64,000 bases of DNA from Patescibacteria group bacterium (GTDB lineage Bacteria > Patescibacteriota > Microgenomatia > UBA1400 > CG1-02-47-37), in assembly GCA_038065055.1 (NCBI GenBank), contig JBBTRT010000002.1, positions 9,038-73,037 on the forward strand. The letters run 5' to 3'. A model generated the notes under the pieces. It did no database searches. It saw nothing but the letters and a program-made list of their open reading frames with translations, and had not been told where the DNA came from. A program made the translations under genes and the position numbers. Positions within the stretch are counted from its first letter, which is position 1. Each line of letters starts with the position of its first letter. Of the stretch, positions 1 to 51,659 are shown piece after piece.

Positions 1-150
1 CTGAACCGCAGTCTTATCAATTAGGTCTAGCTCTTTACGGGAAAAAGCAGTTACTTTAGCTCCGGCCGCCCGAAGTTTCAAAACCAGATGGGAACCGATA
101 AAACCGGTGCCACCGGTAACAAAAACCCGTTTATTTTTGTAAAAATTCAT
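1..150 (-). CDS. NAD-dependent epimerase/dehydratase (extended SDR), first 50 codons only; gene runs off the left edge
   Basis: Reverse-strand translation from ATG at 150..148 gives MNFYKNKRVFVTGGTGFIGSHLVLKLRAAGAKVTAFSRKELDLIDKTAVQ, with a TGGTGFIG Rossmann motif. The start overlaps the end of the upstream gene (131) by 20 nt. Confidence 0.75.
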   Translation of the reverse strand, partial: MNFYKNKRVFVTGGTGFIGSHLVLKLRAAGAKVTAFSRKELDLIDKTAVQ

Positions 151-1312
151 AAAGTTTAGCCGCAATAAAACGTATATCTGCCACGGACATATACGGGTGA
201 CAGCCAAAATAAAATCCCTGACGATTAATCATTTTGGCGACCGGGTACTTGTCTTCCAGATCACCAAAAGTTTTTTTATAAGCCGGCTGGTTAAGTAAAG
301 GCAACAATTCTCTGGTGGCAATGCCGCAGGATTCTAAAAAGTAAATCAGCTCCCATTTATCAATCCGCTTGTCTTTAATCACCAAAGGAAACATCATATA
401 AGCGTGTTCAAAACCTGCCGGCGCTTCGGGTAATTGAAGTTGATTGGCTAAAGGTTTTAAAAGCCGGATCAATAACTTGGCCAAGCGTTGGCGCCGGCTA
501 AGTTGTTTTTTATAATCCCCGGATGCCAATTGGCTTAAACCAATGGCTGCTTCCAATTCACACAAGCGAAAATGCCAACCGATCCGATCAAATTTAAACC
601 GGGAACGAATGACAGTTTTGTTTTTTTGATTCTCATCATTAACCGAAAGATAACGGTCGCTGCGGCCGTGGAAAAGATAACTTCTGGCCATTGATTCAAT
701 TTTCTTATCGTCGCCCAATAAGAAACCGCCGACCCCGGTAGGCAATAAATGAGCAACGTAAGTAGAAAATGCGGCTAAATCGCCCCAGCTGCCGACCGAC
801 CGCTTCTTAACCCCAACAAACATCGCATCGCATGAATCTTCCAAAATTTTCAATTTGTATTTTTTAGCCAACTTAACAATTGCCGGCATATTGGCAGGCA
901 GGCCCAAAACATGGACCGGAATGATCGCCCTGGTTTTCTTGGTTATATGCCGGGCAATTTCTTGAGGGTTAAGATTGTAGGTGGCAAGTTCCACATCAAC
1001 AAAAACCGGCTTTAAACGCAAATGGTAAACCACGTTAGCCGTTGCCACAAACGAGATTGCCGGCACCAAAACTTCGTCGCCATCCCGCCAGCCGTAACGT
1101 TCTTTGAGGGAGGCTAAACCGCACAATAGCGCACCGGTGCCGGACGAGGTAAAAATAGACCAACGGCGACGATGAATTCGGGCAAACATTTTTTCCAGTT
1201 TTTGGGTAAACGGACCGTAAGTCAACCGATTAGTGGCCAAAATTTGCTGAATATATTTTTTAGCCAAAGAATTTAACTTAACTTCTCCTATCGGCACCGG
1301 GCGTTTTTTCAT
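131..1312 (-). CDS. DegT/DnrJ/EryC1-family PLP/PMP enzyme with His replacing the Schiff-base Lys (candidate ColD/E1-like sugar 3-dehydratase)
   Basis: 393-aa ORF with family blocks FTSSGTGALL and DEVLVPAISFVATAN. The four other DegT paralogs here read F-x-F-x-x-N-K-x-x-TTGEGG; this one reads FSTYVAHLLPTGVGG, with His188 at codon 749..751. Confidence 0.8.
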   Translation of the reverse strand: MKKRPVPIGEVKLNSLAKKYIQQILATNRLTYGPFTQKLEKMFARIHRRRWSIFTSSGTGALLCGLASLKERYGWRDGDEVLVPAISFVATANVVYHLRLKPVFVDVELATYNLNPQEIARHITKKTRAIIPVHVLGLPANMPAIVKLAKKYKLKILEDSCDAMFVGVKKRSVGSWGDLAAFSTYVAHLLPTGVGGFLLGDDKKIESMARSYLFHGRSDRYLSVNDENQKNKTVIRSRFKFDRIGWHFRLCELEAAIGLSQLASGDYKKQLSRRQRLAKLLIRLLKPLANQLQLPEAPAGFEHAYMMFPLVIKDKRIDKWELIYFLESCGIATRELLPLLNQPAYKKTFGDLEDKYPVAKMINRQGFYFGCHPYMSVADIRFIAAKLYEFLQK

Positions 1313-9534: not shown

Positions 9535-10236
9535 ATGAAGCAGGCAGTTAAAGTGCGCCAATACTGGGAAAATTTGCAAAATCTTTCCATGCCGGATAAA
9601 AATATATTAGGGCTGGAAATTCAGGCAATTAAAAAATTGCTGGGACCAGGACTGCTGCTGGATGTTGGCTGCGGCGACGGCGAAGCCACAAAAGCATACA
9701 GCCAAGTGAAAAATTTAAAGACAACGGGCATTGATTATTCGGCTGAGCGGCTAAAACTTGCCAGAAAAAATTACCCGGGAATAAAATTTATCATTGCCGA
9801 TCTGACCAAAAAATTGCCGCCGCAAAAATATGATTATATTGTTTCGCAAAGATTTTTAATCAACCTGGAAAGTTGGGCGCAGCAAAAACAAATGATTGCT
9901 AAGCTGTTAAGCTGTTTGAAACCCAAAGGCAAATTAATTTTGTGCGAGGGCAGTCAACAGGGAGCCAGGAAGTTAGACGATTTCAGGGCAAAATTTAAAT
10001 TAGCCCCTATTTCTGTCCGCTGGCATAATGTTTTTCTGGATGATCAAAAATTGACCAGGCTCGGATTTAAATTAATTGGCGGCTTTGGCGGATATTTTTT
10101 ATTAACCCGGGGAGTCCGGCCTTATTTTGACCAGGATTTAAACTGGAATTGCCGATTTAACCGTTTAGCGGCCAAGATTAATTTACCGCATGATTTTTCA
10201 AGATTAAAAATTTGGCAATATGAAGCCAAGAATTAA
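9535..10236 (+). CDS. class I SAM-dependent methyltransferase
   Basis: Motif I LLLDVGCGDGEAT, then YDYIVSQRFLINL. Confidence 0.75.
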   Translation: MKQAVKVRQYWENLQNLSMPDKNILGLEIQAIKKLLGPGLLLDVGCGDGEATKAYSQVKNLKTTGIDYSAERLKLARKNYPGIKFIIADLTKKLPPQKYDYIVSQRFLINLESWAQQKQMIAKLLSCLKPKGKLILCEGSQQGARKLDDFRAKFKLAPISVRWHNVFLDDQKLTRLGFKLIGGFGGYFLLTRGVRPYFDQDLNWNCRFNRLAAKINLPHDFSRLKIWQYEAKN

Positions 10237-11353
10237 CCCGTTACCGAAAAATAAGCTGGGCTTGGGCATTCCCTATATTACCAGCGATGAATTAACGGCC
10301 GCCGGCAGGATAATAAAAAGCGGTTGGCTAAGCTTGGGGCAGGAAACAGAAAAATTTGAACAGGCGATGGCGAAATACGCGGGGGCTAAATACGCGGTGG
10401 CCACTAACAGCGGTACGGCGGCATTACATCTGTCCGTAATTGCTTCCGGGATTAAGGCGGGCGATGAAGTCATTACGACCCCGTTTACTTTTGTGGCCTC
10501 AACCAACTGTATTTTATATGAAAAAGCCAAACCGATATTCGCGGATATTGACCCGGCAACTTTAAATCTGGATGTTAAACAAATAGAGGCAAAAATTACC
10601 GCTAAAACTAAGGCAATTTTAGCGGTCGATGTTTTCGGTTATCCGGCAGAATGGCAGACAATCATAAAAATTTGCCAAAAACATAATTTGGCCATTATTG
10701 AGGACGCGGCCGAAGCGTTGGGGGCTAAATACCAGAAGAAAAAATTAGGCAGTTTAAACCATTTAGCCGTCTTTGGGTTTTTCCCCAACAAACAGATGAC
10801 TACCGGCGAAGGCGGAATCGTGACCACCAATAATAAAAAACAATATGAGCTGATGAAGCGCTTGGCAAACCAAGGCCATCGGGCCGGCCAAGACCAACAG
10901 GATTATCATTACTTGGGCTATAACTACCGGATCACGGAAATCTCCGCGGCTTTAGGGAATGAGCAGTTAAAAAAAATTGACTGGTTTCTGGCCAGCCGCC
11001 GCCAAATAGCCGGCTGGTATGACGAACAACTGGCTAATATTCCCGGCATTAATTTATTAAAACCAAACGACCCTGACCATCAGCGAAGCTGGTTTGTGTA
11101 CGTGATTCTTTTAGATAAAACAATTAACCGGCGTAAAATAGCGGCTAAATTATCCCGCTTCGGGGTACCGGTAAAAACTTATTTTCCCTCCCTGCATCTG
11201 CAGCCGTATCTTAAATCACTTAATTACCAGCGAGGCGATTTTCCGGTCAGCGAAGCGGTTTCTCAAGCAACTTTGGCGTTACCATTTTATACTAGCATGA
11301 GCCAAAAAACAGTTATTTCCGCGTGCAATCAATTAAAAGAAGCCTTAAAGTAA
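10220..11353 (+). CDS. DegT/DnrJ/EryC1-family sugar aminotransferase
   Basis: NSGTAALHL, DEVITTPFTFVASTN and FGFFPNKQMTTGEGG (Lys present). Close paralog of 36033..37145, roughly 60 percent identity by eye. Confidence 0.85.
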   Translation: MKPRINPLPKNKLGLGIPYITSDELTAAGRIIKSGWLSLGQETEKFEQAMAKYAGAKYAVATNSGTAALHLSVIASGIKAGDEVITTPFTFVASTNCILYEKAKPIFADIDPATLNLDVKQIEAKITAKTKAILAVDVFGYPAEWQTIIKICQKHNLAIIEDAAEALGAKYQKKKLGSLNHLAVFGFFPNKQMTTGEGGIVTTNNKKQYELMKRLANQGHRAGQDQQDYHYLGYNYRITEISAALGNEQLKKIDWFLASRRQIAGWYDEQLANIPGINLLKPNDPDHQRSWFVYVILLDKTINRRKIAAKLSRFGVPVKTYFPSLHLQPYLKSLNYQRGDFPVSEAVSQATLALPFYTSMSQKTVISACNQLKEALK

Positions 11354-22045: not shown

Positions 22046-22726
22046 TTAATTAACCGCTTGGTCTTCCAGGCTGACTAAATGTAATTTATCCACCCCTTTG
22101 ATTTTCTTTAACTCTTTCAGGAAATCGGCCGGATTAATTTGGGGCTTTAACTTAATATTATAAGTCATTTCCAGTTTATTCTGTTTGTCAAAGGTTAATA
22201 AATTAGCCAATTGATGCCAAGTAAGATTGGCTTTAAAAATAGCCATTAATTTATCCGTGGTCATCTGGGGGGGGAATTCCAAAGTCAGCAAATGGTCAGT
22301 CCGCTCAATCATGCCAAAATGTTTCTTAGTCAAATAATAAATCACGGCAACAATCATCGCGGTGCTAACTAAAGCAATAGTGTAATTATTGGTCCCCACA
22401 GCCATTCCTAAAATTAAGCTAATAAAAACAAAGGCAATATCTTTTGAGTCTTTCACCGCCGTCCGGAAACGGATAATCGAAAACGCGCCAAATAAAGAAA
22501 AAGCCCTAGCTAAACTGTTACCGACAATCATCATTAAAAGCGAACCGGAAACAGTTAAAAGAACTAAGGTGAAAGTAAAAGAAGCGGAATAAGATAATCC
22601 CCGATGGGTATTTTTATAGACTGTGGCCATGATTAAACCGATCACAAAAGCCAATAAAATATTGACCACAATCGTCGGTAAAGGATAATCTAAGCTCGCG
22701 CCGGCAAGAGACAAAAATTGATTCAT
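22046..22726 (-). CDS. DUF4956-like membrane protein
   Basis: 4 TM segments with the block FSIIRFRTAVKDSKDIAFVF that I recognise from DUF4956. ATGA overlap with the upstream VTC gene. Confidence 0.6.
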   Translation of the reverse strand: MNQFLSLAGASLDYPLPTIVVNILLAFVIGLIMATVYKNTHRGLSYSASFTFTLVLLTVSGSLLMMIVGNSLARAFSLFGAFSIIRFRTAVKDSKDIAFVFISLILGMAVGTNNYTIALVSTAMIVAVIYYLTKKHFGMIERTDHLLTLEFPPQMTTDKLMAIFKANLTWHQLANLLTFDKQNKLEMTYNIKLKPQINPADFLKELKKIKGVDKLHLVSLEDQAVN

Positions 22727-23442
22727 AAATTTTCTTCGCTCACTATACCACAGGCCTCAAGACCGCGGCAATACTTTGACAGAGGAGCGCGATAAAGATT
22801 AGCAAAGCGGCTCATTTCGGCAATATAACCCGGAACCGGGCCGGAAAATTTTATCTCTAAAATATAACTATTGGGATAAACATCAGCTAAACGGTAAGGG
22901 TAAAAAAGATCGGTCGCGGGCGAGGCTTGAATTTGATAATCAAAGGTTAAACGCAAATCCGGATAATGAGGATCCAGCCAAGGTTCGCGCCGGTAAGAAA
23001 CCAAAAGCGAGGGCTTGAGCTGTTTAGCAATAACTGCCTGATAAAAATTAACGGCTGCCGAAGGCAATTGGCTTAAGCTCAGCTGGCCGCGAAGCCAATG
23101 TTTAGTCTTGGCCCAAGTAACCGGGAAGCGGTCTTTATGAAAAAATTCACCATTTTTGCGTTTAATTTCCCAAAAGACAGGCGTGGAAGCAATCGCAGTT
23201 GACTGGTACGCCCGTAACCGGTATTTAGTTCTGATTTTCAAGCCGTACTGTTTATCCCAATATGCCTGATAATCGGCAGTATCAAAATATAAGGAAGCCA
23301 GGTAATAACTTTTGTCTTGGCTGGCACCAGAAAATTTATCCGGCTTTAAACCCCGGGATTTAAAATAACGGCTTAACTTAAGGTATTGATCGGCAGTCAG
23401 TAAATATTTATATTCCCGACGCTGAAAGGTTTGATGGTCCAT
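22723..23442 (-). CDS. VTC-domain (polyphosphate polymerase / triphosphate-tunnel-like) protein
   Basis: Starts FQRREYKYLL (E-x-K tunnel-entry motif), with Arg/Lys-rich beta-strand pattern (IRTKYRLRAY, WEIKRKNG). Commonly paired with DUF4956 in bacteria. Confidence 0.6.
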   Translation of the reverse strand: MDHQTFQRREYKYLLTADQYLKLSRYFKSRGLKPDKFSGASQDKSYYLASLYFDTADYQAYWDKQYGLKIRTKYRLRAYQSTAIASTPVFWEIKRKNGEFFHKDRFPVTWAKTKHWLRGQLSLSQLPSAAVNFYQAVIAKQLKPSLLVSYRREPWLDPHYPDLRLTFDYQIQASPATDLFYPYRLADVYPNSYILEIKFSGPVPGYIAEMSRFANLYRAPLSKYCRGLEACGIVSEENL

Positions 23443-30137: not shown

Positions 30138-30824
30138 ATGAGCTACGACTTGGCTTTAGTTTTACCGGTTCAGAATCAAGCAGAAATTATTAATTCAGTA
30201 GTCAATAAAATTGTTAAAATCTTAACTAAGGCAAAAATTAACTATCAACTGATCATGGCGGAAAACGGGTCGACTGATAATACTTTGTCTGTCCTTAAAA
30301 AAATGGCTAAAAAAAATCACCGAATTAAACTGATTACTTCTTTACCAGGGTATGGCCGGGCAGTAATTACCGGACTAAAAGCAGCTGACGGAAAATACCT
30401 GGGTTACATGCCGTCAGACGGCCAGTGCGATGCGACCGTGCTGACGAAAGTATTTGAGGCGGCGCGGAAAAAATCAGTTGATTTGGTGAAAGTGTACCGA
30501 ACTTCAAGAGAAAGCCGCTTAAGAAAATATATCTCCAAGGTCTTTAACTGCTTGGCAAATTTATTTTTTAATTTAAAAGTTAAAGATATTAATGCCAGCC
30601 CGACGGTGTTTGCGGCGGAAAAATTACAGCAATTAAAATTAAAATCACCAGACTCGTTTCTGGATACGGAATTATTGATTAAAGCGCGAAGATTTAACTG
30701 GAAAATTGTCCGGATACCGATGAGAAACTTCAATCGCAGCGGCGGAAAATCCACCGTCAAACCAGCGATTGTATTTGAGTTTGTAAGAAATATAATCCAG
30801 TGGAGGTGGCATGAACAGTTATAA
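30138..30824 (+). CDS. GT2 glycosyltransferase (DPM1-like, soluble form)
   Basis: LALVLPVQNQAEII, MAENGSTDNT, MPSDGQCD. Confidence 0.75.
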   Translation: MSYDLALVLPVQNQAEIINSVVNKIVKILTKAKINYQLIMAENGSTDNTLSVLKKMAKKNHRIKLITSLPGYGRAVITGLKAADGKYLGYMPSDGQCDATVLTKVFEAARKKSVDLVKVYRTSRESRLRKYISKVFNCLANLFFNLKVKDINASPTVFAAEKLQQLKLKSPDSFLDTELLIKARRFNWKIVRIPMRNFNRSGGKSTVKPAIVFEFVRNIIQWRWHEQL

Positions 30825-31755
30825 AAATAGGACGGTGTTGGTAACCGGAGGAAGCGGTTTTATCGGCGCTAATTTAGTCCGCAGTTTAATTAATCAAAGC
30901 GCTAAGGTCCATTTATTTTTAAGGCCAAAAGCAAAAATCTGGCGGCTGACTGAAATAATAAAAAAAACCAAAATTTATAATGTCGATATTACGGATAAGC
31001 AATCGATTGAAAAAGCAATTATAAAAATTAAGCCCCAAGTGATTTTCCACTTAGCAGTTTATGGGGCCTATCCGCAGCAAACTAACCTAGGGGCAACGAT
31101 TAAAACTAATATAATCGGAACGGTTAATTTACTGGAGGCAATTAAAAACAGCCAAACTGTGCTTGTGAATACCGGAACATCTTCAGAATACGGCTGCAAA
31201 AACAAACCCATGAAAGAAACTGACAGTTTGGAACCGGCTTTTTTTTACGCGGCCAGCAAAGCGGCTACTTCTTATTTATGCCGGATTTTTAGTCAACAAT
31301 TTAATCAGCCAATCATAACCCTAAGGCCATTTTCCATTTACGGCGACTGGGAAGAGCCGGAAAGATTTGTTCCCACCATTATTAATAGCTGTTTGAAAAA
31401 ACAACCAATCAAGCTGGTGGCGGGGAAACAAGTCAGGGATTGGTTATATGTTGAAGATATAACGAGAGCTTATTTAATGGCCGGGGAAAGGTCAGACCTA
31501 AGAGGAGAAATTTTTAATATCGGTTCGGGAAAACAAGTTTTAGTCAGCAAGGTAGCCAGAAAAATTATTAAACTAATTAATAATCCGGTACCGGTTAAGA
31601 TCGGGGCTTATAAGCCGAGGCAATGGGAAGCAAATAATTGGCAAGCAGATATTTCAAAAGCAAAAAAAATTCTCAGTTGGGAACCAAAGTATAATTTAGA
31701 ACAGGGTTTGAAAAAAACTATTGCCTGGTGGGGTAACGCTGGTAAAGCACGGTAA
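30811..31755 (+). CDS. NAD-dependent epimerase/dehydratase (extended SDR)
   Basis: VLVTGGSGFIGANLV, STSSEYG, YAASKAA (YxxxK). Confidence 0.85.
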   Translation: MNSYKNRTVLVTGGSGFIGANLVRSLINQSAKVHLFLRPKAKIWRLTEIIKKTKIYNVDITDKQSIEKAIIKIKPQVIFHLAVYGAYPQQTNLGATIKTNIIGTVNLLEAIKNSQTVLVNTGTSSEYGCKNKPMKETDSLEPAFFYAASKAATSYLCRIFSQQFNQPIITLRPFSIYGDWEEPERFVPTIINSCLKKQPIKLVAGKQVRDWLYVEDITRAYLMAGERSDLRGEIFNIGSGKQVLVSKVARKIIKLINNPVPVKIGAYKPRQWEANNWQADISKAKKILSWEPKYNLEQGLKKTIAWWGNAGKAR

Positions 31756-32841: not shown

Positions 32842-32847
32842 ATTATA
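32842..32847 (-). promoter_or_regulatory. -10 box for the acyltransferase-3 gene
   Basis: TATAAT on the - strand, 6 nt upstream of ATG 32835. It overlaps the first base of the divergent neuB-like start codon. Confidence 0.35.
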
Positions 32848-33881
32848 TGACAAAACTGGGTGGAAAAACTTGTTTTATTATTGCCGAGGCCGGAGTCAAC
32901 CATAATGGCGACGTGAAATTAGCGGAAAGATTAATTATCGCCGCGGCCAAGGCCGGGGCCGACGCCGTTAAATTCCAAACTTTTAAAGCAGAACAGGTAA
33001 CGACAAAGCACTCCCCGACCGCGGCTTACCAAAAGAAAAACGTGGGTGAAAACAATCAATGGAAATTGCTCCGGCCTTTGGAATTAAACGAATCGGCTTA
33101 CCCAAGATTAATTCAAATCGCTAAAGCCAATAAAATTATGTTTTTGTCGACGCCGCACGGACATATTGACTCAGCTAAATTCTTAAAACCTTTAGTCCCG
33201 GCCTGGAAAACCGGATCAGGCGATTTAACCAATCTGCCGTTTTTAAAATGGCTGGGAGAAACCGGCAAGCCGATTATTTTGGCAACCGGCATGGCAACAA
33301 TCGTGGAAATTAAAGAGGCCATAGATACGATTGCTAAAACCGGCAACAAAAAAATAATTATCCTGCACTGCACCACGAACTACCCTTGCCCGGATAATGA
33401 AGCTAATGTAGGGGCGATGCTGGATATTCAAAAAAACTTTCCTGATTATGCGGTGGGGTTTTCCGACCATACTTTAGGAATTGACGCGGATATGTTAGCG
33501 GCCGGACTGGGAGCAGTGATAATTGAAAAACATTTTACTTTGGACCGAAAAATGCCGGGGCCGGACCAGCAAAATTCATTGGAGCCTCAAGAGTTAAAAG
33601 AAATGGTAGAGAAAGTCAGAAGAATCGAAGTATTGAAAGGCAGTGGCATTAAAAAACCGTTTAAATCGGAAATAGTGATTGCCGAAATGGCCCGGAAAGC
33701 GGTGATCGCTTTAACCAATATCAAAAAGGGCAAAAAATTCAGTCATGAGAATTTAACGATCAAACGGCCCGCCAAAGGCGGCTTGCACCCGAAAATGTAT
33801 TGGGAATTAATCGGAAAAATTGCCGCCAAAAATATCCAGGCTGATAGCCAAATCCACGCAGATGATTGGCAAAACATTTGA
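32847..33881 (+). CDS. neuB: nonulosonic acid synthase (NeuB/LegI/PseI family)
   Basis: CFIIAEAGVNHNGDVKLAERLIIAAAKAGADAVKFQTF, HCTTNYPCP and GFSDHTLG, with a C-terminal SAF-like domain. Confidence 0.9.
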   Translation: MTKLGGKTCFIIAEAGVNHNGDVKLAERLIIAAAKAGADAVKFQTFKAEQVTTKHSPTAAYQKKNVGENNQWKLLRPLELNESAYPRLIQIAKANKIMFLSTPHGHIDSAKFLKPLVPAWKTGSGDLTNLPFLKWLGETGKPIILATGMATIVEIKEAIDTIAKTGNKKIIILHCTTNYPCPDNEANVGAMLDIQKNFPDYAVGFSDHTLGIDADMLAAGLGAVIIEKHFTLDRKMPGPDQQNSLEPQELKEMVEKVRRIEVLKGSGIKKPFKSEIVIAEMARKAVIALTNIKKGKKFSHENLTIKRPAKGGLHPKMYWELIGKIAAKNIQADSQIHADDWQNI

Positions 33882-34590
33882 CCTCACGGCGGCTTATTCA
33901 CAAAAGCTAACCGAAGTAAAAAAACTGTTGCATTATTACTTTGACCGAGCCGAAATTAAAAATAAGATCGTATTAGATGCCGGTTGCCGAGTGGGAGATT
34001 ATACCCAGGCTTTTATCAATATGGGGGCACGCAAAGTCATCGGCATTGATTTAAGCAGAAAGTGCCTTAAAACAGCCAAAAAAAGATATAAAAATAATAC
34101 AAAGGCTGCTTTTTACCGTGAGAATTTAACTAACTTGAAAAGATTCCGGGACAATTATTTTGACGCGATTTTTTGCGCCGGAACCATAAGCTATTTAAAT
34201 CCCCAAGATAGCAAAGCCGCGGTTAAAGAATTTGTCCGAATCAGTAAACCAAAAGGGGTCATAATTGTTTTGTTTCAAAAAGATAAAGGCCCGGTAATTC
34301 AAGTTGCCAGATGGATAGCTAATCACCTCCCGTTATCAATTTATCTTTTTTTAGTCGAAAACCTGGCTTTTTTATTAAAGCCAATTGTGGAAAAAATAAT
34401 CGACCGGAGTGTCAGCCTGAACTATCTTAAATATGATATTCTGCTGAGTTTGCGCGGGGTATATTTCGGGGTGCCGGTTAAAATAAATAAAAAATTCCGC
34501 ATCCAAACAATTAAATGCGAGCAGTGTTCGGAAGAAACCACCGCATCCTTTAAAATAATCCTGCCCGCAGACAAAAAGATGCTAAAATAA
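33820..34590 (+). CDS. class I SAM-dependent methyltransferase embedded in the nonulosonic acid operon
   Basis: Motif I VLDAGCRVGDYT, then FDAIFCAGTISYL. The start may be ATG at 33862 (MIGKTFD...). Confidence 0.7.
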   Translation: MPPKISRLIAKSTQMIGKTFDLTAAYSQKLTEVKKLLHYYFDRAEIKNKIVLDAGCRVGDYTQAFINMGARKVIGIDLSRKCLKTAKKRYKNNTKAAFYRENLTNLKRFRDNYFDAIFCAGTISYLNPQDSKAAVKEFVRISKPKGVIIVLFQKDKGPVIQVARWIANHLPLSIYLFLVENLAFLLKPIVEKIIDRSVSLNYLKYDILLSLRGVYFGVPVKINKKFRIQTIKCEQCSEETTASFKIILPADKKMLK

Positions 34591-34594
34591 CCTT

Positions 34595-35650
34595 ATGAAG
34601 AAAGCGGCTTATTTAACCGGGACCAGAGCAGAATTTGGTTTGATGCAGAAAATCTTAAAAAAAATTGACTCTAATTCCCATTTTAACCTTTTATTATTGG
34701 CTACCGGCATGCATTTATTGCCGGAATTCGGCCAAACAATCAATGAGGTAAAAAAAGAATTTCCTGAAGTAAAAATTATTACCGCCACCTATGAAGATGA
34801 TAATCGGTTATCCCAGGCCAGATTTTTAAGCCAATGCTGCCGGTTAGTGACGGAAACGCTGCAGCAAGAAAAACCGGACCTGGTGTTGGTTTTAGGCGAC
34901 CGGGCCGAACAACTGGCTATGGCCCAAACAGCGGCTTATTTAGCCATCCCCGTAATTCATTTGCACGGCGGCGAACATACTACCACGATTGACAATAAAG
35001 CCAGAAACGCAATTACCATGTTAGCTGATTATCATTTACCGGCAACAAAAAAATCAGCTGAAAAATTAATCTCAATGGGTATTGAAGCAAATAAAATACA
35101 GGTTGTTGGCGCCCCAGGATTGGACGAAATTAAAAATTTGGAAAAATCAGAGAAAAAAGAATTTTTAGTGGTATTGCAACACCCGGATGAGCAAGAACAA
35201 GATGCCGCCAAACAAATTTCTTCAACCCTGGAGGCGACTTTAAGTTTTAATTTACCGGTTAAAATTATTTACCCGAACAGCGATCCGGGCGGCAGGCAAA
35301 TAATTAAAGTCATTCAGGAATATGTGAAAAAATATCCGGATAAATTTGAGGCCTTACCTAATTTAATTCATGAGGATTATCTAAAATTGTTAAACCAAGC
35401 TCAGGCGCTAATCGGCAACAGTTCCAGCGCTTTGATTGAAGCGCCCAGTTTGGGACTAGCGGCAGTCAATATCGGACCGAGGCAAAAAGGCCGGGAAAAA
35501 GCCGGGAATGTGATTGAGGCTGATTATGACGAAAAAACAATAATTCAGGCAATTAAATTAGCTTTAACAAAAAAATTAACGGGAAAAGATAATCCTTACG
35601 GCGATGGGCAAACCAGCCAAAGAGTGATAAAATTCCTCGAAACACTATGA
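34595..35650 (+). CDS. neuC: UDP-sugar 2-epimerase, hydrolysing type (NeuC/LegG family)
   Basis: LTGTRAEFGLM, ATGMHL, GDRAEQL and VIHLHGGEHTTTIDN, the pattern of the hydrolysing branch. Confidence 0.8.
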   Translation: MKKAAYLTGTRAEFGLMQKILKKIDSNSHFNLLLLATGMHLLPEFGQTINEVKKEFPEVKIITATYEDDNRLSQARFLSQCCRLVTETLQQEKPDLVLVLGDRAEQLAMAQTAAYLAIPVIHLHGGEHTTTIDNKARNAITMLADYHLPATKKSAEKLISMGIEANKIQVVGAPGLDEIKNLEKSEKKEFLVVLQHPDEQEQDAAKQISSTLEATLSFNLPVKIIYPNSDPGGRQIIKVIQEYVKKYPDKFEALPNLIHEDYLKLLNQAQALIGNSSSALIEAPSLGLAAVNIGPRQKGREKAGNVIEADYDEKTIIQAIKLALTKKLTGKDNPYGDGQTSQRVIKFLETL

Positions 35651-36036
35651 ATCGATTTAAACAGTGGCAACAACCGGCATTTGATAAAAACGATATGACT
35701 AAATGGAATTGGATCTGCCAGCACCGGGATAAGTTCCAATTAGGAAAAAATACCGATATCGGCGCGTTTACCTATATTAATGCCAAATACGGAGTAATAA
35801 TCGAGGATGAAGTTCAAATCGGCAGCCATTGCGCGATTTATTCAGACAATACGATCGATAACATCCAGGGAAAGATTATTATTAAACAAGGAGCCAGAAT
35901 CGGCAGCCACACGGTGATCTTGCCGGGAGTAACGATTGGTGAAAACGCCTTAATCGGCGCCCACAGCTTAGTTAAACAAAATGTTGGCCCTAATGAAATC
36001 GTTGGCGGAGTGCCGGCAAGGCTAATTAAAAAATGA
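35647..36036 (+). CDS. left-handed beta-helix (hexapeptide-repeat) acetyltransferase (LegH/PglD-like role)
   Basis: Imperfect hexapeptide repeats IGSHCAIYSDNTI ... IGSHTVILPGVTIGENALIGAHSLV. Confidence 0.8.
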   Translation: MNRFKQWQQPAFDKNDMTKWNWICQHRDKFQLGKNTDIGAFTYINAKYGVIIEDEVQIGSHCAIYSDNTIDNIQGKIIIKQGARIGSHTVILPGVTIGENALIGAHSLVKQNVGPNEIVGGVPARLIKK

Positions 36037-37145
36037 AACAAATCCTACTTGGCCCTCCATCACTGGCTCAAGATGAAATCAAAGCGGTTTCCCGAGTGAT
36101 TAAAAGCGGCCAGTTAAGCCTGGGCGAAGAAACGGCTAAATTTGAACAAGAAATGGCCCAGTGGGTCGGGACAAAATACGCGGTGGCGGTTTCCAGCGGA
36201 ACCACTGGCCTGCATTTAGCGGTGATTGCCGCCGGAATTAAACAGGGCGATGAAGTAATTACTGCACCTTTTTCTTTTGTGGCTTCAACCAATTGTTTTT
36301 TATACGAAAAGGCCGTCCCTAAATTTGTGGATATTGACCAGGTAACTTTTAATATCGACGTAAATAAAATTGAAGCGGCTATAACAGATAAAACAAGGGC
36401 TATAGTCGGGGTGGATATTTTCGGCTATCCGGCTGAGTGGGGCAAAATATCAGCCATTGCCAAAAAATACAACTTGGCCGTCATTGAAGACGCGGCTGAG
36501 GCTTTGGGGGCCAAATATAAGGGTAAAAAATTAGGCAGCTTAGGCCAGCCGACTATTTTTGCTTTTTACCCGAACAAGCAAATGACTACCGGCGAAGGCG
36601 GCATGGTAGTAACTAATGATAAAAAAACTTATCAATTAATCAAAGGCTTAGCCAACCAGGGCCGCGGGCCGCAAATGCAGTGGTTAAAACATGAATATTT
36701 AGGCTATAACTACCGGATGACTGAACTATCAGCGGCGATCGGCCGGGCCCAACTTAAAAAACTTGATTGGTTTTTGAAAAGCCGGCAAAAAGTCGCCGGC
36801 TGGTACAATCAAAGATTAAAAAATATACCGGCAATTCAATTAATTAAAACGGATGATAAAGAACATGAGCGCAGCTGGTTTGTTTACGTAGTGAGATTGG
36901 ATAAAAAAATTAACCGGGATAAAATTATCAATAAACTGATCCGTGCCGGAATTCCCAGCAAGGCTTATTTACCGTCAATCCACTTACAGCCATATATGAA
37001 ACCATATGGATTTAAACCGGGCGATTTTCCGGTCAGCGAGGCAGTTTCCAATTCTACTTTATCTCTCCCCTTTTATACGGAGATGAAACAGTCAACGGTT
37101 GATTACGTTTGCGAAAAACTAATTAAAACTTTAAAATCAAGCTAA
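36033..37145 (+). CDS. DegT-family sugar 4-aminotransferase (LegC/PglE-like role)
   Basis: SSGTTGLHL, DEVITAPFSFVASTN and FAFYPNKQMTTGEGG. ATGA-type coupling on both sides. Confidence 0.85.
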   Translation: MKQILLGPPSLAQDEIKAVSRVIKSGQLSLGEETAKFEQEMAQWVGTKYAVAVSSGTTGLHLAVIAAGIKQGDEVITAPFSFVASTNCFLYEKAVPKFVDIDQVTFNIDVNKIEAAITDKTRAIVGVDIFGYPAEWGKISAIAKKYNLAVIEDAAEALGAKYKGKKLGSLGQPTIFAFYPNKQMTTGEGGMVVTNDKKTYQLIKGLANQGRGPQMQWLKHEYLGYNYRMTELSAAIGRAQLKKLDWFLKSRQKVAGWYNQRLKNIPAIQLIKTDDKEHERSWFVYVVRLDKKINRDKIINKLIRAGIPSKAYLPSIHLQPYMKPYGFKPGDFPVSEAVSNSTLSLPFYTEMKQSTVDYVCEKLIKTLKSS

Positions 37146-38137
37146 TGAATCATCCGAAAATTACCAATAAAAATATTTTAGTTTCCGGAGGCACCGGGTC
37201 GATCGGGTCAATTTTAGTCCAAAAAATTATCCGCGGCTTCCAACCAAAACAAGTCAGAATCTTGGATAATAACGAGGCCGGTTTATTCCAAGCCATAAGG
37301 CAGTATAAAAATAATGAAATCGTAAGGTGTTTCTTGGGCGATGTCCGGGATAAAGACCGGGTAAATTGGGCAATGAAAGGCGCAGACGCTGTTTTTCACG
37401 CCGCGGCTTTAAAACACGTGGAATTAAATGAATACTCGCCATTTGAGTCGGTTAAAACTAATGTACTCGGAACCCAAAATATGCTGGAAGCGGCGTTATT
37501 AAATAACGTGGAAACTTTCATTAATATTTCAACTGATAAGGCGGCTAATCCTACCAGCACCATGGGAGCGTCAAAATTATTGGCGGAAAGATTAACGTCC
37601 GGGGCCAATAATTTTAAAGGCAACGCCAGAACAGTTTTTGCCAGCGTGAGATTCGGCAATGTGCTAAATTCTTCCGGTTCGGTGTTGCCAATTTGGCAGG
37701 AAGAAATTCAGCAAGGCAAGGCTTTAACCGTGACCGATAAAAATATGATCCGGTACTTTATGACAATTGAGGATGCGGTCAGCTTGATTTGCAAAGCGGC
37801 GGCAACGGCAAAAGGCGGTGAAGTGTTTATTTTGAAAATGCCGGCACTAAAAATAATCGATTTAGCCGAAACTTTGAGCGAAATATTAGCCAAGCCGCTC
37901 AAAATTAAAACCGTCGGCAAAAGGCAGGGTGAAAAATTATTTGAGAAAATTGTGACCCGGACTGAGGCTGCTTTAGCTTTGGAATTATCGGAAATGTATG
38001 TTTTACCGGCTGCGGAAAACCGAGATTGGTATCGGCAAAACGGCGGTAAAGGCGTTCCTGAAGAAGGGGTGGAGCCGAAGAAGCTGATGACTAAAGCGGA
38101 AATTAAGCAATTATTAATCCGGATAGGGATAAAGTGA
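37145..38137 (+). CDS. nucleotide-sugar 4,6-dehydratase, Polysacc_synt_2 family (PglF/LegB-like)
   Basis: ILVSGGTGSIGSILV and STDKAANPTSTMGASK. Met140 (37562..37564) occupies the position of the SDR catalytic Tyr. Confidence 0.8.
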   Translation: MNHPKITNKNILVSGGTGSIGSILVQKIIRGFQPKQVRILDNNEAGLFQAIRQYKNNEIVRCFLGDVRDKDRVNWAMKGADAVFHAAALKHVELNEYSPFESVKTNVLGTQNMLEAALLNNVETFINISTDKAANPTSTMGASKLLAERLTSGANNFKGNARTVFASVRFGNVLNSSGSVLPIWQEEIQQGKALTVTDKNMIRYFMTIEDAVSLICKAAATAKGGEVFILKMPALKIIDLAETLSEILAKPLKIKTVGKRQGEKLFEKIVTRTEAALALELSEMYVLPAAENRDWYRQNGGKGVPEEGVEPKKLMTKAEIKQLLIRIGIK

Positions 38138-38916
38138 AACTGGTCATCGTTGGGTTAGGGTCAATCGGAAAAAGGCATAAAACAAATTTAGAATCTTTAG
38201 GCCATGAAGTAATTAATGATTATGCAGAAGCCGATGGAATTTTAATTTGCAACCCAACGGCATTGCACGTTAAAACCGCGCTGGAAGTTCAAAAATACCA
38301 TTTGCCTATTTTTATTGAAAAACCAATTTCTCATAATTTGGATAATCTAGATAAGTTAGCCGGAAATATCTTGGTCGGCTATTGTTTAAGATTTGATTGG
38401 TCTTTGCAAGAATTTAAAACCAAAATCAGCCAGGAAAAAATCCAAGCGGTAAAAATTGTTTGCCAAAGCTGGCTGCCGGATTGGCGGCCAGATAAAGATT
38501 ACCGCCAAAGTTATTCGGCAAAAAAGGAATTAGGCGGCGGGGTGCTGCTAGATTTGTCCCATGAAATTGATTATGCTTTATGGTTTTTCGGGCCGGTGAA
38601 AACAGTTAAAGCTAAATTACAAATGGTACCGGAATTAGAAATCGAAATCGAAGCCAAAGTTAATTTAGAGCTGGAATTTGTTTCCGGAGTAAAAGCAGAA
38701 ATGTATTTAAGTTATGCTGACAATGAATATAAAAGATTTTGCGAGGTGCAAACCGATAAGGAAAAGCTTGTTTGGAATTTTCAGCCGAATAACGAAATGT
38801 ATGTTGAAGAAATGAAACACTTTATTAAAGTAATTCAGGAAAAAGAAAAACCATTAATTACTGTGGCTGACGGCAAGAAAGTCCTAGAAGTAATCGAGGC
38901 GGCGAAAAATTCATGA
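38134..38916 (+). CDS. Gfo/Idh/MocA-family NAD(P) oxidoreductase
   Basis: LVIVGLGSIGKRH Rossmann and FIEKPIS (EKP motif). Confidence 0.7.
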   Translation: MKLVIVGLGSIGKRHKTNLESLGHEVINDYAEADGILICNPTALHVKTALEVQKYHLPIFIEKPISHNLDNLDKLAGNILVGYCLRFDWSLQEFKTKISQEKIQAVKIVCQSWLPDWRPDKDYRQSYSAKKELGGGVLLDLSHEIDYALWFFGPVKTVKAKLQMVPELEIEIEAKVNLELEFVSGVKAEMYLSYADNEYKRFCEVQTDKEKLVWNFQPNNEMYVEEMKHFIKVIQEKEKPLITVADGKKVLEVIEAAKNS

Positions 38917-39743
38917 ACCGTTATAACTTTGGCTTTGTCTTCACCGAGGTCACCATGTTGATCGTCGGTAAGTATTTATTAAACTTAGGTTTTCACCCTT
39001 ATTTTTATGGTGTGATCACCGGCGTCTGCGCTTCTTTAATTATGCTGAAGGCGTTTAAACTTCACCCAACAAAAGCGACCTTTATTGTCACACTGCCGAC
39101 GATTGTCTTTTTTACCATTGCCAACTCCTTAGGTTTTATGGCTTTAAAGTATAGCCAACTAACAAGCTATAATTTTTTAATCCAAAGCAGTTTGTTAACG
39201 GTACCGCTTTTGGCTCATTGGTTTTTAAAAGAAAAAATTCATTGGCTGATTTTTCCGCTTTCCTTGATTAATCTGATAGGCATCGCTCTACTGGTAAGCT
39301 TAAACCAAGCCGGGTTCCAATTCGGTAATGTTTTAACACTGCTGGCAGCAATTTTTGTTGGTTTGGATTTTGTTTGGCAAAAACGGGCCGCACTCAAAAT
39401 TAATCAAAATATCGTCGCTTTTTGGCGCCGGTTGATATCGTCACTTTTCCTGGGAATCTTTTGGCTCATGACACCGTCTTTGGGCACAGCCACTTTTAGT
39501 AATGCTTTGATATTAATCCCCATTTCCTTGCTTTATGTAGTCTTCTCATTATTGATGGTAAGAGCCTTAACTGTTCAACCTGTAGCCGACTTTAATTTAT
39601 TTATTACCATCTCTCCTGTTCTTACCGCCATAGCAGCTTTTTGGTTACTTGGCGAAACAATGACTTTAAAGCAAATAATCGGAGCAAGTTTAATCGTTAT
39701 CTCAATTATCGTTTATAATTGGTATAGGAAAACTAAAACATGA
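38913..39743 (+). CDS. EamA/DMT-superfamily transporter (10 TM)
   Basis: Two internally repeated 5-TM halves, each ending in an EamA-like block (LLAHWFLKEKIHW...IGIALLV and AFWLLGETMTLKQIIGASLIVISIIVY). Confidence 0.7.
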   Translation: MNRYNFGFVFTEVTMLIVGKYLLNLGFHPYFYGVITGVCASLIMLKAFKLHPTKATFIVTLPTIVFFTIANSLGFMALKYSQLTSYNFLIQSSLLTVPLLAHWFLKEKIHWLIFPLSLINLIGIALLVSLNQAGFQFGNVLTLLAAIFVGLDFVWQKRAALKINQNIVAFWRRLISSLFLGIFWLMTPSLGTATFSNALILIPISLLYVVFSLLMVRALTVQPVADFNLFITISPVLTAIAAFWLLGETMTLKQIIGASLIVISIIVYNWYRKTKT

Positions 39744-40288
39744 AACTCAAAAAACGGCTGATTATTTACGCCTTTATCGACAGCCAAAATTTAAATCTGG
39801 GCACCAGTAAAGATTTATTTAAAAATAAGAAACTTATTTATCGCGGCTGGAAATTAGATTTTAAAAAATTTCAGATCTACCTAAAAAACAAGTTTAAAGC
39901 CAGTAAGGCTTTTTTATTCATCGGCTATATAAAACAAAATCAAAAGCTTTATCAGTTTTTACGCCGTTGCGGTTACACTTTGATTTTTAAACCAACCACT
40001 AAAGACAACCACGGCAAATTCAAAGGTAATGTCGATGCCGAACTAATCCTTCATTCTGCCGCCATTGAATTTCCTCATTACAACAAAGCAATTATTGTTG
40101 CCGGAGACGGTGACTACCACTGTTTATTGGAATATTTAGAATCCAAAAATAAACTCTACAAACTAATAATTCCCAACCGGTATTCCGAATCCAGGTTGTT
40201 AAGTAAATTCCAATCTTATAAAATCTTTCTGTATCGAGAGAAAGATAACCTGATTTATGCCAATAAAAATGGGAGGCGTCGCACATAA
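39740..40288 (+). CDS. NYN-domain (LabA-like, PIN-fold) protein
   Basis: Acidic motifs IYAFIDSQNLNLG, GNVDAELILH and IIVAGDGDYHCLLEYL. ATGA overlap with the EamA gene. Confidence 0.6.
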   Translation: MKLKKRLIIYAFIDSQNLNLGTSKDLFKNKKLIYRGWKLDFKKFQIYLKNKFKASKAFLFIGYIKQNQKLYQFLRRCGYTLIFKPTTKDNHGKFKGNVDAELILHSAAIEFPHYNKAIIVAGDGDYHCLLEYLESKNKLYKLIIPNRYSESRLLSKFQSYKIFLYREKDNLIYANKNGRRRT

Positions 40289-40332
40289 ACACATAGTTTA
40301 TGGGTCGTATTCTCCCTAATGATTAAAACTAT

Positions 40333-40338
40333 TATACT
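40333..40338 (+). promoter_or_regulatory. -10 box upstream of the neuA-like gene
   Basis: TATACT in the 82-bp spacer after the NYN gene. It lies 6 nt upstream of a 6-codon mini-ORF ATG (40345) and 32 nt upstream of ATG 40371. Confidence 0.3.
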
Positions 40339-40370
40339 AAGCAAATGATTCTTTTGTCAAGTAAAAAACT

Positions 40371-41054
40371 ATGATTCTGGCTGTCATTCCCGCACGGAGC
40401 GGGTCAAAATCAGTTAAAGATAAAAATATCCGGCCTTTGGGCGGAAGGCCGTTGATGGCATGGTCGATTAAAACCGCTCTTGCCTGCAAACAAATTGATA
40501 AAGTAGTTGTTTCTACTGATAGCGAAAAATACGCCCAGTTGGCTAAATTTTACGGCGCAGAAGTTATTATGCGGCCGGCAGAACTGGCGACTGATGAGGC
40601 AGCTATGATACCGGTGTTACAACACGCCTTGAAAACCTATCCGGCAGATTTGATAGTCTTGCTTGACCCAACTTCACCTCTAAGAAATGTAGTTGATATT
40701 AATAAATGCTTGGAATTAATTAAACAACCGGAAACAGATTCGGTAATTACGATTTGCGAGGTAGAACATAATCCGTTTTACGTGATGGGGGTGATTAAAA
40801 ATAACTATTGGCAGTTTCCAATTGCTAAACCGGAAAAAGAAATCCATCGGCGGCAAGACGCGCCCAAGGCTTACCGGGTTAACGCGGCAGTTTATATCAT
40901 AAAAAAAGAAATTTTAATGGCCGGTAAAATATTTACCGATAAAACCCGGACAGTCGAAATGCCGCAAGAGCGATCCAGCCATATTGATAGCGAACTTGAT
41001 TTTAAATACATTGAATTTTTATTAAAGGAGAAATATGTCAAATCAGATTTTTAA
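40371..41054 (+). CDS. neuA: CMP-nonulosonic acid synthetase (NeuA/LegF cytidylyltransferase family)
   Basis: ILAVIPARSGSKSVKDKNI at the N-terminus and RRQDAPKAYRVNAAVY. 227 aa. Confidence 0.85.
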   Translation: MILAVIPARSGSKSVKDKNIRPLGGRPLMAWSIKTALACKQIDKVVVSTDSEKYAQLAKFYGAEVIMRPAELATDEAAMIPVLQHALKTYPADLIVLLDPTSPLRNVVDINKCLELIKQPETDSVITICEVEHNPFYVMGVIKNNYWQFPIAKPEKEIHRRQDAPKAYRVNAAVYIIKKEILMAGKIFTDKTRTVEMPQERSSHIDSELDFKYIEFLLKEKYVKSDF

Positions 41055-50396: not shown

Positions 50397-51659
50397 ATGT
50401 TAATTATGCAACCGGCGCGTGATTATAAATTAAAAGAGTTAGGTAAAAGAACAAAGTGCATTCCCGGATCAGAACCGGTTTTAAGCGGAGAATCTCATGA
50501 TAAAGTCATGGGTAAAAAGGCCCGGCCGCTTTTCTCAAAAAAAATTATCCCGGTTTGCGAACCTTCATTAAACGCCAAAGCTTTTGAGTATGTTAAAAAG
50601 GCGTTACAAACCAACTGGATTAGCTCGAGAGGTGATTTTTTAGAAAAATTTGAGCAATTATTTGCTAAAAAAGTCGGGGCTAAATATGCAGTAGCGGTTA
50701 ATTCGGGAACCTCGGCATTACATTTAGCTTTGGCAACATTAGGGATTGAACCAATCGATGAAGTGATTGTGCCAACCTACACAATGATTTCTTCGGCTTT
50801 TGCCGTTTCTTACCTGGGGGCCAAGCCGGTTTTTGTCGACTGTGATGATTATTACCAAATTGACCCAAATTTAATTGAAGCGGCTATTACCAAAAAAACT
50901 AAAGCAATTATGCCGGTTCATATTTACGGACACCCGGCGGACATGGATAAAATTGAAAAAATTGCTAAAAAATATAAGTTAGCGGTTATTTATGATGCGG
51001 CCGAATCACATGGAGCAAAATATAAAAACAAAGAAATTGGCGGCCGGGGTTTAGCCAGCTGCTATTCTTTTTATGCTAATAAAATTATTACTACCGGTGA
51101 AGGCGGCATGGTTGTTTCCAATAACAAAGCTTTTATTGAACTCGCCCGAAATTTAAAAGATGTAGCCTTTTCCACTGAACGCCATTTCTGGCATAAACGA
51201 CTAGGCTATAACTTTAGAATGACAAACATAACCGCTGCCGTCGGTTTAGCCCAGACAGAACAATATGATAAATTAGTAAAAGCCAGAATCGATCACGCAA
51301 AATATTATATGAAAAACCTGGCTAAAGTTAAGGGAATAAAATTCCCCAAAACTGCACCTTGGGCGAAAAATGCTTTCTGGATGTTTGGCTTTGAGGTCAT
51401 GCCGGAATTTGGGATGACAAGGGACAAATTAAGACAATTTATGGCTAAAATGGGGGTAGAAACCAGAACATATTTTGTGCCGTTACACTTACAGCCGTAT
51501 TATTACAAAGAAAATAAAGACAAGATTTTTCCTGTGGCTGAAGGCTTAAGTGAAAGAGGATTATATATTCCTTCGGCTTCGAGCTTAAGCAAGATTCAGA
51601 TGGATCGAGTTATTAGAGTAATTAAACAGGCCCACAAAACCGCAATTTTAAAGAAGTAA
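50397..51659 (+). CDS. DegT-family sugar aminotransferase (ArnB-like) with uncertain 5' end
   Basis: NSGTSALHL, DEVIVPTYTMISS and YSFYANKIITTGEGG. The family core begins near residue 50. Alternative ATGs are at 50406 and 50508. Confidence 0.8.
   Translation: MLIMQPARDYKLKELGKRTKCIPGSEPVLSGESHDKVMGKKARPLFSKKIIPVCEPSLNAKAFEYVKKALQTNWISSRGDFLEKFEQLFAKKVGAKYAVAVNSGTSALHLALATLGIEPIDEVIVPTYTMISSAFAVSYLGAKPVFVDCDDYYQIDPNLIEAAITKKTKAIMPVHIYGHPADMDKIEKIAKKYKLAVIYDAAESHGAKYKNKEIGGRGLASCYSFYANKIITTGEGGMVVSNNKAFIELARNLKDVAFSTERHFWHKRLGYNFRMTNITAAVGLAQTEQYDKLVKARIDHAKYYMKNLAKVKGIKFPKTAPWAKNAFWMFGFEVMPEFGMTRDKLRQFMAKMGVETRTYFVPLHLQPYYYKENKDKIFPVAEGLSERGLYIPSASSLSKIQMDRVIRVIKQAHKTAILKK

Follow-up and report, generated by a model that had tools for sequence, protein, structure and literature searches.

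What reaction does a sugar enzyme of the DegT/DnrJ/EryC1/StrS family catalyze when the lysine that should form the Schiff base with its cofactor has been replaced by histidine? This question is raised by a gene (here termed DegT-His) at the left edge of a 64,000-nucleotide stretch of DNA (the window) from a Patescibacteria group bacterium of the Microgenomatia (contig JBBTRT010000002.1, positions 9,038 to 73,037), for which an original prediction had proposed a ColD/E1-type sugar 3-dehydratase followed by a short-chain dehydrogenase/reductase (SDR). On the basis of alignments, a structural model and the gene neighborhoods of homologues, we consider it rather likely that DegT-His is a pyridoxamine 5'-phosphate (PMP)-dependent nucleotide-sugar 3-dehydratase of the Fe-S-independent (ColD) type from an uncharacterised and widespread lineage. 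The predicted 3-dehydratase activity is the best-supported reading of this locus, and it draws on an invariant histidine, linkage to Gmd (GDP-mannose 4,6-dehydratase), the SDR partner and the lack of a cysteine cluster.

The protein is a member of the DegT/DnrJ/EryC1/StrS (PF01041) family of sugar enzymes that use pyridoxal 5'-phosphate (PLP) or PMP: a Pfam profile search placed PF01041 over residues 17-387 with 268 bits, and the AlphaFold2 model (mean pLDDT 91.6) has a fold-type I aminotransferase-like fold that matches solved family members with TM scores of 0.85-0.89. As originally claimed, His188 lies at the position of the Schiff-base lysine. HMMER put it in the column of His220 of E1 (RfbH/DdhC/AscC, CDP-4-keto-6-deoxy-D-glucose 3-dehydrase, 3bcx), where ypaHh of the wild type is changed to ypaKh in the H220K mutant (3bb8), and MAFFT paired it with His188 of ColD (WbdK, GDP-4-keto-6-deoxy-D-mannose 3-dehydratase of E. 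coli O55, whose sequence was taken from a PDB search, 2gms), with Asp159, Ser183 and residue 88 numbered identically in the two proteins. The other four DegT paralogs of the window all carry lysine followed by TTGEGG, again as had been stated, and lysine occupies this position in each of the 16 lysine-type sequences that we compared, solved aminotransferases included.

The histidine is a property of a whole family. A search of a 5.8-billion-protein collection yielded homologues of which the 120 best matches (46-93% identity) were compared, and histidine was found at the Schiff-base column in all 120, as well as in 79 of the 79 genome loci analysed. Together with the cofactor-binding residues it is invariant over sequences down to ~40% identity from Bacteria and Archaea, a degree of conservation far beyond what chance could produce. 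Because the Lys-to-His exchange is invariant across so large a family, this is not a group of aminotransferases in which the substitution is simply tolerated. Family members can be recognized by the signature FSTY[VIA]AH..TGVGG, EDSC[ED]xMF and HGR..IDDD (120 best homologues and loop comparison), in which Thr184 is specific to the family when aligned with ColD, E1 and lysine-type sequences. Asp159, Ser183, Phe88, Gly58-Thr59 and Arg249 are invariant in a 37-sequence family alignment (A1) and in the alignment with ColD. Asp159 corresponds to the conserved aspartate of the PLP-binding motif, which in this fold contacts the pyridine nitrogen. By alignment, then, DegT-His keeps the residues that bind the cofactor: the pyridine-nitrogen aspartate, Ser183, the aromatic residue that stacks on the ring and the Gly-Ser/Thr loop for the phosphate. 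Another lysine that might reach the cofactor, the check attached to the original prediction, did not emerge: no lysine is invariant in the 37 sequences, and the sole nearly invariant one (K70) sits at the C-terminal end of helix 58-73 in the model, which would place it away from the cofactor.

Three derived characters are common to this family, ColD and E1: the histidine, a cysteine in an EDxC motif and an extended loop after HG(R/W). Cys161 of DegT-His (EDSCD) recurs in ColD (EDNCE) and E1 (EDCCD), whereas aminotransferases have EDAA. Over the span equal to query residues 213-250, the loop measures 38 aa in DegT-His, 39 in ColD and 47 in E1, and 35-47 aa in His-type enzymes generally versus 20-32 aa in the 16 lysine-type sequences. 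The loop of His-type enzymes closes with a common (S/R)F(K/R/S)F motif, and that of the DegT-His family is acidic, with HGR followed by Y(L/I)SIDDD. Residues 215-249 correspond to the Fe-S loop in E1 and to the Arg219 loop in ColD. These residues contain no cysteine in DegT-His, as is the case in most family members, so that an Fe-S cluster of the E1 type is not expected, electron transfer of the E1/E3 type seems unlikely and DegT-His is ColD-like rather than E1-like. Without Fe-S, the remaining route is that of ColD, with hydrolysis and regeneration of PMP from glutamate (PMC8987622).

A Clostridial subclade of the family, represented by Eubacterium sp. MSJ-13 (L067) and a Lachnospiraceae genome (L076), does have four cysteines in the loop after HGR (HGRACTCERCVASDGNQVCPKR), like the [2Fe-2S] motif of E1. 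Gmd and ManC genes lie with those of the subclade, as does a gene for an SDR that shares 53-54% identity with the GDP-fucose synthase of E. coli; as judged from the sequences, this could indicate a GDP-linked enzyme of the E1 type.

Genomic context, counted over the 79 loci, points in the same direction as the active site. An SDR resembling GDP-L-fucose synthase (GFS), nearly always on the same strand, accompanies the DegT-His gene in 45 loci (directly adjacent in 30), Gmd (TIGR01472, 601 bits versus a cutoff of 415) in 31 (adjacent in 19), a GT2 glycosyltransferase resembling dolichol-phosphate mannose synthase (DPMS) in 23 (adjacent in 5) and a ManC-like mannose-1-phosphate guanylyltransferase in 8 (adjacency not counted). 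When the count is confined to the 44 loci in which 5 kb or more flank the gene on either side, 35 have Gmd and/or the SDR, and Gmd lies beside it in members from the Candidate Phyla Radiation (CPR) as well (L017, L019, L027, L063, L081, L088). Moreover, Gmd is fused in frame to DegT-His in two independent Patescibacteria/Saccharibacteria (CPR) genomes, and other fusions join DegT-His to GT2, GT4 or GT2-methyltransferase moieties (Table 1). In an uncultured Pelosinus sp. (L069), Gmd is followed by a ColC ortholog, which shares 52% identity with the E. coli O55 protein, and this in turn by the family member; the colC-colD adjacency of the E. coli O55 locus corresponds to the latter pair. On the basis of the Gmd/SDR linkage, the fusions and the order in L069, we connect the family with GDP-4-keto-6-deoxymannose as substrate and with a 4-keto reductase that acts later. 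This context follows the logic of the colitose pathway and is incompatible with simple 4-amination.

In the genome under study, the gene downstream of DegT-His is, as the original prediction had noted, an overlapping extended SDR, of which the window holds the first 50 aa. This fragment starts MNFYKNKRVFVTGGTGFIGS, includes the Rossmann motif TGGTGFIG and gives short N-terminal matches to extended-SDR families (e.g. Pfam Epimerase, 32.8 bits). The 308-aa protein completed from the contig (ColC has 307 aa) matches GFS over its full length (Fcl model NF047922, 232 bits versus a cutoff of 500; PDB 1bws, 177 bits) and, aligned to E. coli 1bws, keeps at identical numbering the catalytic triad Ser107-Tyr136-Lys140 and the epimerisation pair Cys109/His179. 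By its sequence it is a predicted epimerase/reductase of the GFS/ColC type, and the earlier label "ColC-like" holds for family and catalytic residues. Orthology to ColC or Fcl is ruled out by the sub-cutoff Fcl score and by the divergence of the SDR, which matches GFS at 36% identity and the ColC protein of E. coli O55 at 28%. Since a 4-reductase needs a surviving 4-keto group, a 3-dehydratase, and not an aminotransferase, fits this partner, and the 20-nt gene overlap implies translational coupling of the two. The gene that follows encodes a DPMS-like GT2 that resembles AglJ and polyprenyl-phosphate sugar synthases, its sole solved relative being the GDP-mannose-dependent dolichol-phosphate mannose synthase of Pyrococcus.

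How does this lineage relate to characterised enzymes? Well-characterised nucleotide-sugar 3-dehydratases form three groups only, E1, ColD and SpnQ (PMC8987622, a 2022 review). DegT-His shares 26% identity with ColD, 28% with E1, 28% with GDP-perosamine synthase (Per) and 28-32% with the lysine paralogs of the window. Characterised C. jejuni ColD homologues, by comparison, are 62-67% identical to ColD (PMC10440746). ColD orthology is ruled out by the low identity and a phmmer score of 122 bits, and identity with E1/RfbH by 196.4 bits to NF011936 (cutoff 423) and a loop with 0 cysteines. Neighbor-joining trees separated His-type from lysine-type sequences with bootstrap support of 99% in the full set and 82% under balanced sampling. 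The DegT-His family is probably a third lineage, sister to ColD+E1, although it is conceivable that its histidine arose independently. The designation "ColD/E1-type" therefore needs qualification: DegT-His is ColD-like in having no cysteine cluster, it is not E1-like and it is an ortholog of neither, and it is better called a member of a new, signature-defined His-type lineage.

DegT-His resembles ColD in the replacement of lysine by His188, in Asp159, Ser183, the aromatic residue at 88 and the EDxCE/D motif, and in a long, Cys-free loop after HG with an (S/R)FKF motif and no Fe-S cluster; both genes adjoin and overlap an SDR gene of the GFS family and, at the family level, both are linked to Gmd and ManC. 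Unlike ColD, which is found in Gram-negative O-antigen loci, the family extends across CPR, many other bacterial phyla and Archaea, has the acidic IDDD motif in its loop and in many cases is joined to a DPMS-like GT2 by gene coupling or fusion. With E1 it shares the histidine, the S-x-Y-x-A-H spacing, an aspartate at the position of E1 Asp194 (Asp162 here) and the extended loop; by contrast, it has no Cys-x-Cys...Cys motif and no E3 partner, and its family context is GDP-linked whereas E1 is CDP-linked. Per (3bn1) is the best structural and profile match and has the same presumed substrate, GDP-4-keto-6-deoxymannose, but it carries lysine (FSFFGNK..TTGEGG), EDAAE and a 22-aa loop, and the trees place it with the lysine-type enzymes.

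By analogy to the chemistry of ColD, DegT-His would hold PLP non-covalently and convert it to PMP by transamination with glutamate. The 4-keto group of the substrate, GDP-4-keto-6-deoxy-D-mannose, would then condense with PMP to a ketimine, His188 would take the C4' proton and the 3-OH would leave, with hydrolysis giving GDP-4-keto-3,6-dideoxymannose and ammonia. C5 epimerisation and C4 reduction by the coupled SDR would lead to a GDP-3,6-dideoxyhexose, which may be colitose or an isomer. The coupled GT2 would probably put this dideoxy sugar on polyprenyl phosphate, and the GT-C glycosyltransferases of the surrounding glycan island could then use the lipid-borne sugar outside the membrane. The broader proposal, that DegT-His is the first member to be recognised of a third lineage and that this lineage makes GDP-3,6-dideoxyhexoses which in many organisms are passed to a DPMS-like GT2 for polyprenyl-phosphate delivery and GT-C glycosylation, is a tentative one, and we hold it with considerable reserve.

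Several observations weigh against the assignment of DegT-His as a GDP-sugar 3-dehydratase of the ColD type. Neither pairwise nor by profile is it more similar to ColD and E1 than to aminotransferases: with the family profile, Per reaches 262 bits, the aminotransferase 7b0m 252, E1 249 and ColD 219, and in pairwise phmmer comparisons E1 (135 bits) is ahead of ColD, which falls below several aminotransferases. Likewise, the fold nearest to the model is that of Per (TM 0.88/0.94, rmsd 2.2 Å; ColD 0.85/0.86, E1 0.89/0.84). The structural comparison called for by the original prediction thus bears out the His-type features in the alignment and not ColD as the nearest structure, and the phylogeny supports the grouping with ColD+E1 while profile and fold scores do not favor it. 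Bootstrap support for that grouping falls to 64% after masking of motif and loop columns. Val194 replaces the glutamate of xGEGG that is present in ColD, E1 and aminotransferases, and ColD Ser187, His189 and Arg219 are not conserved either (Ser187, His189, Glu194, Arg219 and Asn248 of ColD correspond to Ala, Leu, Val, Asp and His). The SDR, being nearer to GFS than to ColC, could in principle make fucose independently. The 21-kb Pelosinus locus (1-21164) contains three His-type DegT genes, including RfbH and ColD-like genes, and the family member there might act differently. Finally, the search to the left for Gmd or a nucleotidyltransferase, proposed with the original prediction, failed: no Gmd, the partner seen elsewhere in the family, and no ManC or other NDP-sugar pyrophosphorylase/NTP-transferase was found in ~81 kb (the window, ~10 kb to its left and ~7 kb to its right), whether by Pfam annotation of the called genes, by NCBIfam models run on every extended SDR or by tblastn with authentic Gmd and ManC queries. 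These searches brought up no more than generic 4,6-dehydratase-like SDRs, an enzyme resembling PseB and a CMP-sugar synthetase, and Gmd and guanylyltransferases are also missing within 10 kb of the gene in the close relatives L010, L090, L091, L093 and L094.

The affinity to Per raises the possibility that DegT-His acts as an unusual sugar 4-aminotransferase, or as some other PLP enzyme from a Per-like ancestor, with His188 as general base and the amino sugar freed by hydrolysis instead of transaldimination. Such an activity would accord with the LpxD/NeuD-like N-acyltransferase encoded directly downstream of the family member in L069 and with the aminotransferase activity that SpnQ displays without its reductase (PMC8987622). 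We regard it as unlikely, given that all lysine-type sequences compared, solved aminotransferases among them, keep the lysine, that the dehydratase loop and EDxC are common to the family, ColD and E1, that the gene most often found next to it encodes a 4-keto reductase/epimerase, for which amination would leave no substrate, and that wild-type ColD and E1 do not transaminate sugars under comparable conditions (PMC8987622). A catalytically dead paralog kept for structural or regulatory reasons, as the loss of both the catalytic lysine and the xGEGG glutamate might suggest, is the least probable alternative, hard to reconcile with a histidine and cofactor residues that are invariant to ~40% identity in both domains of life and with operon coupling and fusions to biosynthetic enzymes.

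That neither Gmd nor ManC lies within ~81 kb here, or within 10 kb of the gene in the close relatives, leads to a different alternative, in which DegT-His and the Microgenomates-like subclade are 3-dehydratases that act on a UDP-, CDP- or dTDP-4-keto-6-deoxyhexose supplied by a generic SDR of the island. The dTDP-glucose-4,6-dehydratase-like SDR in the window would be a candidate, and Asp162 of the subclade, as in E1 and not Glu, is in line with this idea. However, the subclade keeps the invariant residues of the whole family, which are also found in Gmd-linked and Gmd-fused members, its partner SDR is GFS-like with GDP-sugar enzymes as best solved relatives, the GT2 resembles a GDP-mannose-dependent DPMS, and CPR members with an adjacent Gmd exist; we therefore deem use of another nucleotide improbable. 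An E1/SpnQ-type 3-dehydratase needing an Fe-S cluster and an external reductase would explain why pairwise scores lie slightly nearer E1 than ColD, why the SxY-x-AH spacing and Asp162 are common to E1 and why Clostridial members have four loop cysteines. Yet the Cys-free loop of the query and of most of the family, the low RfbH model score (196 bits versus 423) and the lack of an E3-like reductase gene in the window and its flanks make it very improbable. We thus retain a ColD-type 3-dehydratase as the preferred reading.

Table 1. Coordinates of the features discussed (window positions unless a locus is named; L001 is the locus taken from the source contig, reaching left of the window)
Feature	Position	Strand	Details
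SDR gene, first 50 aa of 308-aa GFS/ColC-family epimerase-reductase	1..150	-	full gene L001:11163-12089
Overlap of DegT-His and SDR genes, 20 nt	131..150	-	DegT stop 131-133, SDR ATG 150
DegT-His gene, 393-aa His-type DegT/DnrJ/EryC1 enzyme, predicted PMP-dependent nucleotide-sugar 3-dehydratase	131..1312	-	open reading frame list, Pfam, model
Extended loop HGRSDRYLSVNDENQKNKTVIRSRFKFDRIGWHFR, residues 215-249, 0 Cys	566..670	-	loop comparison
Signature motif FSTYVAHLLPTGVGG, residues 182-196, with Thr184 and Val194	725..769	-	alignment
Codon of His188, Schiff-base Lys position	749..751	-	computed from the reading frame; aligned to E1 His220 and ColD His188
Motif EDSCD, residues 158-162	827..841	-	alignment
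DPMS-like GT2 gene, next after SDR, outside window	L001:12070-12810		20-nt overlap with SDR
Lys-type DegT paralog	10220-11353	+	Lys motif FGFFPNKQMTTGEGG
Lys-type DegT paralog (nonulosonic-acid set)	36033-37145	+	Lys motif FAFYPNKQMTTGEGG
Lys-type DegT paralog	50397-51659	+	Lys motif YSFYANKIITTGEGG
Lys-type DegT paralog	53684-54799	-	Lys motif FSFFGNKIVTTGEGG
dTDP-glucose-4,6-dehydratase-like SDR	30811-31755		171 bits
NeuB	32847-33881		nonulosonic-acid set
UDP-GlcNAc 2-epimerase-like	34595-35650		nonulosonic-acid set
Hexapeptide transferase			nonulosonic-acid set
PseB-like 4,6-dehydratase	37145-38137		nonulosonic-acid set; 297 bits
CMP-sugar synthetase	40371-41054		nonulosonic-acid set
VTC-domain and DUF4956 gene pair	22046-23442		
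Radical SAM/SPASM protein	59899-60972		among GT4 genes
ArnB-like Lys-type DegT, left of window	L001:12758-13960	-	364 bits to UDP-Ara4N aminotransferase model
In-frame Gmd-DegT-His fusions	L071:7770-10010; L072:2761-4998		GDP_Man_Dehyd 453 bits, no internal stop codon
DegT-His-GT2 fusions, reading frames of ~620-640 aa	L037, L039, L049, L050, L052, L068, L070, L075		8 loci, DegT-His N-terminal to GT2
DegT-His-GT4 fusions	L024:9971-12376; P0066		DegT-His precedes GT4
GT2-methyltransferase-DegT-His fusion	L044:1901-4519		DegT-His last
RfbH/E1 ortholog, L069	138-1244		643 bits
DegT-His family member, L069	10001-11197		
ColD-like gene, L069	17375-18598	-	
Clostridial 4-Cys members	L067:10001-11203 (Eubacterium sp. 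MSJ-13); L076:9974-11194 (Lachnospiraceae)		loop comparison
DUF6798 protein	L090:8437-9987; L093:8437-9987; L094:8437-9987		

The island around DegT-His encodes GT-C membrane glycosyltransferases (PMT_2, DUF2142, YfhO), GT2 and GT4 enzymes, methyltransferases and a nonulosonic-acid (pseudaminic/legionaminic-like) gene set (32847-41054). With its coupled DPMS/AglJ-like GT2 and GT-C genes, the island is reminiscent of three-component glycosylation systems (ArnC/ArnT, GtrB/GtrC, CsbB/YfhO, DPMS/PMT). Unlike in those systems, the sugar here would be a 3,6-dideoxyhexose, the GT2 step being deduced from the genes. To our knowledge, no three-component system with such a sugar has been described. Left of the window, beyond the DegT-His/SDR/GT2 trio, an ArnB-like lysine-type DegT gene is followed up to L001:15243 by genes for an ArnC-like GT2 and a WcaF-like acetyltransferase, a group that has the look of another module for polyprenyl-phosphate-linked amino sugars. 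CotH-like kinase genes and a pair of VTC-domain and DUF4956 genes are found repeatedly near the trio, and also in L090 and L094, and a radical SAM/SPASM gene in the window has a homologous arrangement in L094. In three relatives at 63-67% identity (L090, L093, L094) a 516-aa DUF6798 membrane protein is encoded directly upstream of the DegT-His gene; tblastn detected no homologue of it in the window or in L001.

The window occupies positions 101092-165091 of a 276-kb contig from groundwater (Hain_H52_02um_R3_5), and the closest named relatives are Microgenomates-type CPR bacteria (Beckwithbacteria, Curtissbacteria, Gottesmanbacteria). When each GTDB species was represented by one genome, a relative of DegT-His was found in at least 595 species-level genomes. 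The bacterial hosts include CPR groups, Elusimicrobia, Acidobacteria, Latescibacterota, Planctomycetes, Proteobacteria, Chloroflexi and Clostridia, and the archaeal ones Woesearchaeota, Methanosarcinales and Thermoplasmata. Genuine ColD and named family members alike bear the NCBI name "DegT/DnrJ/EryC1/StrS family aminotransferase", and our literature search, on the lineage itself and on CPR colitose, returned nothing specific and no lineage member.

The mechanism proposed here is unsurprising, and the value of the finding lies in a useful re-annotation: if the lineage is recognised, thousands of bacterial and archaeal proteins would be re-annotated from aminotransferase to dehydratase, and CPR bacteria and archaea would be expected to bear dideoxyhexoses on their surfaces. 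Experiments could easily start from the Gmd fusions or from Eubacterium sp. MSJ-13, a host in culture, and the Lys-to-His switch could be compared across lineages, including the apparently Fe-S-bearing Clostridial subclade within the same family. If the broader proposal is correct, three-component glycosylation systems would gain a new type of donor, and 3,6-dideoxyhexoses would be common surface sugars well beyond Gram-negative O-antigens.

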